From assembly GCF_030013595.1 (NCBI RefSeq), contig NZ_CP122768.1: a stretch of 64,000 bases of DNA; one strand, written 5' to 3'. The notes under the pieces are model-generated. The model made no database searches and was not told the DNA's origin. It was given only the letters and a program-made list of their open reading frames with translations. Shown one piece after another: positions 19,706 through 19,935 of this stretch. Within the stretch, counting starts at the first letter, position 1. Each line of letters starts with the position of its first letter. Source of the stretch: Escherichia coli. Lineage in GTDB: Bacteria; Pseudomonadota; Gammaproteobacteria; Enterobacterales; Enterobacteriaceae. The position numbers and the translations under genes are program-made.

Positions 19706-19935
19706 AAAGAAAAAAGCCAGCAGATAATCACTGCTGGCGTGGCGATTAACACCAATACTCAGTCACACATGATGTCCGCAAATCAGTAGCCAGAATGACT
19801 CCCCTCCCACTGCATCAGTTCTTCAAGCATGGTTAATCGTTGTGGGACGCTTAACCAACGCAACCAGCACAACTTCGCTGTCGCGGTAAAATAGTGCTGA
19901 TAAAACTGACGCATGGGGCACCTCCTTGCTTCATC
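19706..19935 (-). ncRNA. sgrS: SgrS small RNA (glucose-phosphate stress), ends approximate
   Basis: 5' end GATGAAGCAAGG..., conserved seed-region string GTGTGACTGAGTATTGGTGT, 3' hairpin gccagcag/ctgctggc plus U-run at about 19705-19738; divergent from sgrR. Confidence 0.88.
19783..19914 (-). CDS. sgrT: SgrT, 43-aa peptide encoded within SgrS
   Basis: ATG at 19914; MRQFYQHYFTATAKLCWLRWLSVPQRLTMLEELMQWEGSHSGY; nested in sgrS. Confidence 0.85.
   Translation of the reverse strand: MRQFYQHYFTATAKLCWLRWLSVPQRLTMLEELMQWEGSHSGY

Follow-up and report, generated by a model that had tools for sequence, protein, structure and literature searches.

In Escherichia coli K-12, SgrR induces the small RNA SgrS under glucose-phosphate stress; the SgrS seed pairs with the ptsG and manXYZ mRNAs with the assistance of Hfq, and the peptide SgrT inhibits PtsG transport (PMC4021124, PMC2760806, PMC9765468). 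K-12 sgrS and setA form an operon, in which the setA mRNA arises by read-through of the leaky sgrS terminator (PMC9765468). An earlier note on a 64,000-nt stretch of E. coli DNA (the window) pointed to an SgrS/SgrT allele that departs from the K-12 sequence while keeping the seed region. This raises the question of what kind of allele it is, and of why it differs from K-12 where it does. The window very probably contains the standard, functional sgrS/sgrT locus of a large class of E. coli that lacks setA.

The sgrS gene is 227 nt long and lies at 19709..19935 on the minus strand; it begins, in RNA sense, with GAUGAAGCAAGGAGGUGCCCCAUG and is a non-K-12 allele of the 'CFT073 type'. The Rfam SgrS model RF00534 aligns with it from end to end (model positions 1-232, untruncated; 229.8 bits against a gathering score of 37; E = 1.3e-65). 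The span first given for the feature, 19706-19935, does hold sgrS, on the minus strand, but its start runs 3 nt past the Rfam end and into the second U-run; this is immaterial. The conserved string GTGTGACTGAGTATTGGTGT is found as described, at 19768-19749 on the minus strand, within the base-pairing seed island CAUCAUGUGUGACUGAGUAUUGGUGU (19749..19774, minus strand). This 26-nt island, which includes GUGUGACUGAGUAUUGGUGU, is the same as in K-12, and the seed-pattern scan finds the seed string kept across genera. Pairing by the K-12 seed is experimentally established, and a G176C,G178C allele abolishes it (PMC2760806); through its K-12-identical island, the window RNA would have the ptsG-complementary seed of an SgrS.

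The divergent sgrR-sgrS promoter region (19936..20002) has one difference from K-12 in 67 nt. On its other side is sgrR, the gene for the sgrS activator (20003..21661, plus strand; NCBIfam NF010149 equivalog, 1125 bits), which is divergent from sgrS and 67 nt from its 5' end. By sequence, all defining parts of a functional SgrS/SgrT system are intact, with a seed and a promoter that are little or not at all changed from K-12. SgrR would activate sgrS under glucose-phosphate stress, the unchanged seed would pair with the ptsG and manXYZ mRNAs via Hfq, and the 5' part of sgrS would be translated into SgrT, which would block PtsG transport.

A divergent allele could also be a degenerating sRNA or small ORF, or a sequencing error. 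Decay does occur in this haplotype: in O157:H7, which carries it, the sgrT start codon has been mutated from ATG to ATT and is lost (PMC2760817). The window, however, has an intact ATG, 43-codon ORF and canonical Shine-Dalgarno sequence; its seed and terminator arms are perfectly conserved, and its Rfam match is full length. Sequencing error is contradicted by the independent complete genome of E. coli strain 7/2 (NZ_CP023820), which has 100% identity over a 246-nt query spanning sgrS, and by diagnostic 32-mers that occur in 205 to 3,508 genomes. Hardly any credence can be given to decay or artefact.

Exact identity to K-12 had been named as the result that would count against a distinct allele. 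On alignment to K-12 MG1655, 30 of the 227 positions differ and none of the 26 in the seed, so the allele is distinct and the seed is kept. The differences are unevenly distributed: 2 are in RNA nt 1-129 and 28 in nt 130-227. The 5' UTR (nt 1-21) differs at 1/21 positions (A13 here, G13 in K-12), and SgrT codons 1-36 (nt 22-129) differ at 1/108 (E32 here, G32 in K-12). Divergence is much denser in the final seven SgrT codons and stop (nt 130-153; 11/24) and in the pre-seed spacer (nt 154-161; 4/8); it is nil in the seed island (nt 162-187; 0/26) and high again in the post-seed spacer (nt 188-197; 6/10). Within the terminator, the 5' arm is unchanged (nt 198-205; 0/8), the loop differs at 5/7 positions (nt 206-212), and the 3' arm differs at 1/8 (nt 213-220), where the closing pair is G-C here and G-U in K-12. 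Position 227, the final RNA nt, differs as well (1/1), and the U tract is U6-C-U5 here, as opposed to U8 in K-12. The spacers flanking the seed and the terminator loop of K-12 are therefore not those of the window allele. In general layout the two are alike: K-12 SgrS is also 227 nt long, encodes a 43-aa SgrT, and has the same 8-bp terminator stem bar the closing pair. Purifying selection has probably kept the seed and the terminator arms constant, while allowing change in the SgrT tail, in the spacers and in the terminator loop.

The sgrT coding sequence (19783..19914, minus strand; 43 aa plus stop) matches Pfam family PF15894 with 49.6 bits, against a cut-off of 27. Translated from 19914-19783, it reads MRQFYQHYFTATAKLCWLRWLSVPQRLTMLEELMQWEGSHSGY, exactly as in the earlier note. 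The Pfam match spans residues 3-37, and the divergent tail (residues 37-43) is mostly outside it; an NCBIfam search with SgrT gave no match. Seven of the 43 residues differ from K-12, six of them in the C-terminal tail; K-12 SgrT has G32 and the tail DDRNSES, while SgrT in the window has E32 and EGSHSGY. A BLASTP comparison with K-12 SgrT gives 36/41 identical residues within the aligned stretch. In strain 7/2, the protein is labelled 'glucose uptake inhibitor SgrT' in RefSeq (WP_001248769.1).

The leader of sgrT differs from K-12 at a position of known functional interest. The K-12 leader given in the earlier note is correct (GGGGG, as opposed to GGAGG here): it is GCAAGGGGGTGCCCC in MG1655 and GCAAGGAGGTGCCCC in the window. 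In the translation-initiation region AAGGAGGUGCCCC (19915..19926, minus strand), A13 (position 19923) creates a canonical AGGAGG Shine-Dalgarno sequence and breaks the GGGG/CCCC hairpin of K-12. When folded, the G13 leader of K-12 forms an RBS-sequestering GGGG-GUG-CCCC hairpin (-12.4 kcal/mol) and the window leader does not; the K-12-type inverted repeat GGGGGUGCCCC is absent, the window having GGAGGUGCCCC instead, and the minimum free energy structure has no RBS hairpin. In published work, the GGGGGTGCCCC inverted repeat represses sgrT translation, and weakening it through C19/C21 mutations raises SgrT activity (PMC2760806, Wadler & Vanderpool 2009). Since the window has a canonical Shine-Dalgarno sequence and lacks the hairpin, SgrT is probably better translated here than in K-12; the argument draws on the leader itself and on mutagenesis in K-12, which targeted the opposite arm of the hairpin. 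An A13 leader would accordingly yield more SgrT than that of K-12, where G13 sequesters the RBS.

K-12 is the exception in this respect. AGGAGG is found in all six other Escherichia sequences compared; A13 is therefore the common and ancestral Escherichia state, and the K-12 G13 a derived one. Among 5,426 complete E. coli genomes, the leader 32-mer occurs in its A form (that of the window) in 3,508 and in its G form (that of K-12) in 1,426; about 74% of complete E. coli genomes are thus without the K-12-type RBS-sequestering leader sequence. Of 15 E. coli strains in an earlier report, just 3 had the stem-loop at the sgrT RBS, and it was absent from all other Escherichia and from Shigella (PMC2760817).

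The 3' end of sgrS is an intrinsic terminator (19704..19738, minus strand). The terminator scan gives an 8-bp stem, GCCAGCAG/CUGCUGGC, with six of its eight pairs G-C, a 7-nt loop and the tail UUUUUUCUUU; the hairpin reads GCCAGCAG-UGAUUAU-CUGCUGGC and is followed by UUUUUUCUUUUU, with a U6-C-U5 tract. The string gccagcag-ataatca-ctgctggc of the earlier note is the plus-strand reading of this terminator. Its claim that the terminator differs from K-12 holds for the loop (5/7) and the closing base (C here, U in K-12); the arms are otherwise identical. The terminator folds with -17.0 kcal/mol (z = -4.3), against -14.5 kcal/mol for K-12 in the same 44-nt context, and is thus predicted to be slightly more stable. 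It is a poly(U)-tailed Rho-independent terminator of the type that acts as the Hfq-binding module, and is in this allele a putative Hfq-binding site. The interrupted U tract could change 3'-end formation or Hfq binding. Citrobacter shares the GGC-U6 form.

It had also been suggested that the terminator stem might be used for checking compensatory changes. There are none: across seven Escherichia sequences, 7 of the 8 pairs are invariant, and the eighth is changed on one side only (G-C here, G-U in K-12). Among the homologs recovered from other genera, those with this hairpin show no change in the stem either. The whole predicted structure fits the Rfam architecture, with 94.7% of cells paired, and covariation over it is no better than in shuffled alignments (300 of 500 shuffles reach the observed score). 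The sole two-sided change is at pair 18-146. Other Escherichia species have U-A there and the window has C-G, while most setA-less E. coli have a C/A mismatch. This is suggestive of a restored pair; we note it but do not claim it, because it is a single case in a structure derived from the window sequence itself, and because position 146 is also coding (SgrT D42G). The loop UGAUUAU was considered as a marker private to this strain and rejected, as it is common to all 2,156 setA-less E. coli; the loop of other Escherichia species is UGAAUAC.

The region beyond the terminator sets this locus apart from K-12. In K-12, the gene order is sgrS, setA, then convergent leuD. In the window, setA (1,179 bp in K-12) is missing at the sgrS-leuD junction (19676..19708), and the leuD stop codon (19673-19675) comes 33 nt after the Rfam end of sgrS. 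The leuD gene (19070..19675, plus strand; TIGR00171, 343.9 bits) is convergent with sgrS. Strain 7/2 and O157:H7 Sakai also lack setA at this junction. In contrast to K-12, with its sgrS-setA operon, the window has no setA downstream of sgrS and hence no operon of the K-12 type; with setA absent, terminator read-through would have no downstream mRNA to make. On the plus strand, the terminator scan gave no terminator-like site from the leuD stop codon up to position 20100; read-through from leuABCD could therefore run antisense to SgrS.

Divergence from K-12 is concentrated on both sides of the missing gene. In a sliding comparison, the leu and thi genes show a background of about 3 differences per 100 nt, and the 5' half of sgrS, the promoter and the 5' part of sgrR about 1 per 100 nt; the count peaks with 43 differences in 19670-19769 and 16 in 19770-19869. 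By segment, leuB, leuC and thiB differ from K-12 by about 3%, the sgrS 3' half by 26.8% and the leuD 3' end by 14.7%. The last 70 nt of leuD contain 13 differences, against a background of about 3 per 100, and 4 of the last 11 LeuD residues differ. As judged by alignment, there is a divergent block around the setA indel, with its left border formed by the 3' half of sgrS and its right border by the C-terminus of LeuD.

Simple vertical drift, in which the strain merely belongs to a different phylogroup and no recombination or haplotype block is involved, is consistent with flanking genes that are at the ordinary between-phylogroup level of about 3%, and with allele classes that follow strain groups. 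It does not account well for the last 82 nt of sgrS; at 26.8%, these differ from K-12 at nine times the background, which is as much as the window differs from Salmonella (24-26%) and more than it differs from Citrobacter (12-13%). Over nt 1-129 of sgrS, by contrast, K-12 and the window are distinguished by 2 sites. Moreover, the 3' half of K-12 sgrS is the same as that of another Escherichia species, although the two are 6-10% apart in the adjoining sgrR. Drift alone is very unlikely. Most of the difference from K-12 is explained by membership of the setA-less haplotype, which is present in about 40% of E. coli; the stretch that runs from codon 37 of SgrT through the terminator tail would represent a distinct, old haplotype, co-inherited with the lack of setA.

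Counts across the 5,426 complete E. coli genomes fit the membership of the window in such a class. Matches to sgrS are bimodal: 2,158 genomes have at least 95% identity to the window and 3,241 have 80-90%, with zero complete E. coli genomes in the band of 90-95%. The window 32-mer that covers the post-seed spacer and terminator loop occurs in 2,156 genomes, and 3,241 of the 5,426 carry setA, the same number as have the K-12-type allele. By these matching counts and a few spot checks, the type of 3' module is completely linked with setA status. In the spot checks, F11 (China) has setA and a K-12-type SgrT, and Sakai has neither. F11 was examined as a possible counter-example, on account of its K-12-type leader, and was rejected; it has setA, so the linkage holds.

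The allele classes track strain groups, with B2 and O157:H7 on one side and K-12, HS and O121 on the other. The setA-less class includes phylogroup B2 strains (Nissle, ST131), O157:H7 and others. The proposed use of the allele as a lineage marker is supported at two levels. At the coarse level, the marker is the 3' module together with setA status (2,156 against 3,241 genomes); at the fine level, it is G146, which gives SgrT Gly42 as in the window and is found in 205 genomes within the setA-less class, while A146 (Asp42) is found in 1,952. A literature search for work relating setA, sgrS and phylogroup found no paper. Three sgrS matches and three setA matches are on records classed as plasmids; these are possibly misassigned replicons or chromosomal fragments.

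Other species carry both forms of the locus. These were compared through a seed-pattern scan of species-representative genomes, among which E. fergusonii, E. marmotae, E. ruysiae and S. enterica subsp. enterica were not recovered. In every non-Escherichia genus for which enough downstream DNA was retrieved, setA is 3' of sgrS; the genera with setA include Citrobacter, Salmonella, Klebsiella, Raoultella, Atlantibacter, Siccibacter and Superficieibacter. Within Escherichia, setA is absent from E. albertii, E. whittamii, Escherichia sp. E1V33 and 'E. coli' SCPM-O-B-8794; these have a window-type 3' half that is 3.7-6.1% different. The last of them (NZ_JAATUR010000005), filed as 'Escherichia coli', has an sgrS about 7% from that of the window and is probably a cryptic-clade Escherichia, a separate species representative. 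Escherichia sp. MOD1-EC7003 has setA, and the 3' half of its sgrS is 0% different from that of K-12.

Over the 82-nt 3' half of sgrS, the window differs from Citrobacter by 12-13%, from Salmonella by 24-26% and from K-12 by 26.8%; the K-12 3' half is 21-27% from all sequences compared except MOD1-EC7003. The compared segments are short (82-116 nt), which makes these distances noisy. K-12 and MOD1-EC7003 differ by 6-10% in sgrR and by about 1% from roughly 100 nt upstream of the seed through 360 nt of setA. On alignment, this is the pattern that a recombined block leaves when it has been shared recently, and its left edge is inside sgrS.

The Salmonella and Citrobacter homologs resemble the window in having no RBS hairpin, a GGC closing pair and a U6-7 tract, and in C. 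werkmanii and C. amalonaticus the likeness extends to the post-seed spacer UUAAUCGCC and a similar loop. They differ from the window in that they retain setA, have a 40-aa SgrT and insertions in the 5' UTR, and are diverged by about 12-25% in the 3' half. Salmonella SgrT is well translated (PMC2760817, PMC2760806). In a comparison of sgrS 3' ends (loci L006, L007, L036, L014 and L034 against L003, L012 and L027), two types of post-seed spacer and loop recur across genera, the K-12 type being UAAAAUCACCC + AUUAU.. and the window type UUAAUCGCC.C +.UAUUAU; both types are found within Citrobacter. This suggests that the two 3' modules predate Escherichia or were exchanged between genera. On one reading, there was an old deletion in an Escherichia ancestor, after which a setA block was re-imported into K-12-like E. 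coli; the other reading is that of a long-standing setA polymorphism.

The link between module and setA might also be functional. The 3' module (SgrT tail, spacers, terminator loop, closing pair and U tract) would then have been shaped by selection for the need of setA read-through, and not by neutral hitch-hiking. The leaky K-12 terminator does yield setA mRNA by read-through (PMC9765468), it is predicted to be the weaker of the two (G-U closing pair, -14.5 against -17.0 kcal/mol), and the linkage of module and setA is complete by counts. Complete linkage is, however, to be expected anyway within tens of nucleotides of an indel, and the terminator stem is otherwise invariant. Citrobacter and Salmonella, which do have setA, share the GGC closing pair of the window and have a U6-7 tract, so that a 'strong' terminator is no peculiarity of genomes without setA. 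In addition, both spacer types recur among genera that carry setA. Functional co-adaptation is for these reasons considered unlikely, if less so than drift alone.

It is likewise unlikely that the two sgrS 3' modules, together with setA being there or not, make up one old trans-species Escherichia polymorphism, moved by homologous recombination with a breakpoint inside sgrS and with the ultra-conserved sgrT core and seed as homology anchor, in which the modules are functionally tuned to setA read-through, through terminator strength and U tract, and leuABCD read-through is possibly antisense to the SgrS seed. If this antisense relationship were true, leucine biosynthesis could be coupled to the sugar-stress response. 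The preferred reading, of a standard sgrS/sgrT locus from the setA-less class, is also in keeping with what has been published on SgrS.

The allele is already known, having been published in 2009, and is not a novel variant. K-12 SgrS was reported to have 88% identity with its homologs in CFT073 and O157:H7 Sakai (PMC2760817, Horler & Vanderpool 2009), and 'LGT from an external clade' was inferred for SgrS in 2012 (PMC3318445). The window allele is like those of CFT073 and Sakai in being about 88% identical to K-12 and without the K-12-type RBS hairpin. Sakai shares with the window the 3' module and terminator 32-mer, the absence of setA, and espY2 beyond sgrR; within the RNA it differs at two positions, having an ATT start and A146 where the window has ATG and G146. 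The population counts, the sharp mosaic boundary within the sRNA and the cross-species sharing of both haplotypes modestly extend the published picture.

K-12 is thus an atypical reference for the SgrS/SgrT system. About 40% of complete E. coli genomes are without setA, and hence without the sgrS-setA operon that underlies the work on terminator read-through. Conclusions on SgrT dosage and read-through that are based on K-12 may not carry over to B2, O157:H7 and their relatives.

A number of other features of the window were observed. Firstly, sgrR diverges from K-12 by 2.3% in its 5' half and by 9.4% in its 3' half (20771-21661), the latter being as far as between Escherichia species. The 3' half adjoins an espY2 indel and is, on present alignments, a second divergent block border at this locus. 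Secondly, the gap between sgrR and a TPP riboswitch (21662-22700) contains a 189-aa ORF at 21891-22460 on the minus strand, inserted relative to K-12. It is labelled 'T3SS effector EspY2' in RefSeq (strain 7/2; Sakai ECs_0073) and has no Pfam or NCBIfam match. It was considered as a part of the setA-less haplotype and rejected: only 1,045 of 5,426 genomes have this region (80-99.7% identity), against 2,156 that are setA-less, and it therefore varies independently of the setA deletion. The TPP riboswitch itself (RF00059, 66.1 bits) is at 22701-22800 on the plus strand, upstream of thiB, as in K-12. Finally, 60762-60850 is an inverted, 83%-identical copy of a 93-nt K-12 sequence located between thiQ and yabI (L001 reverse-complement 13365-13457); this is probably a short dispersed repeat.
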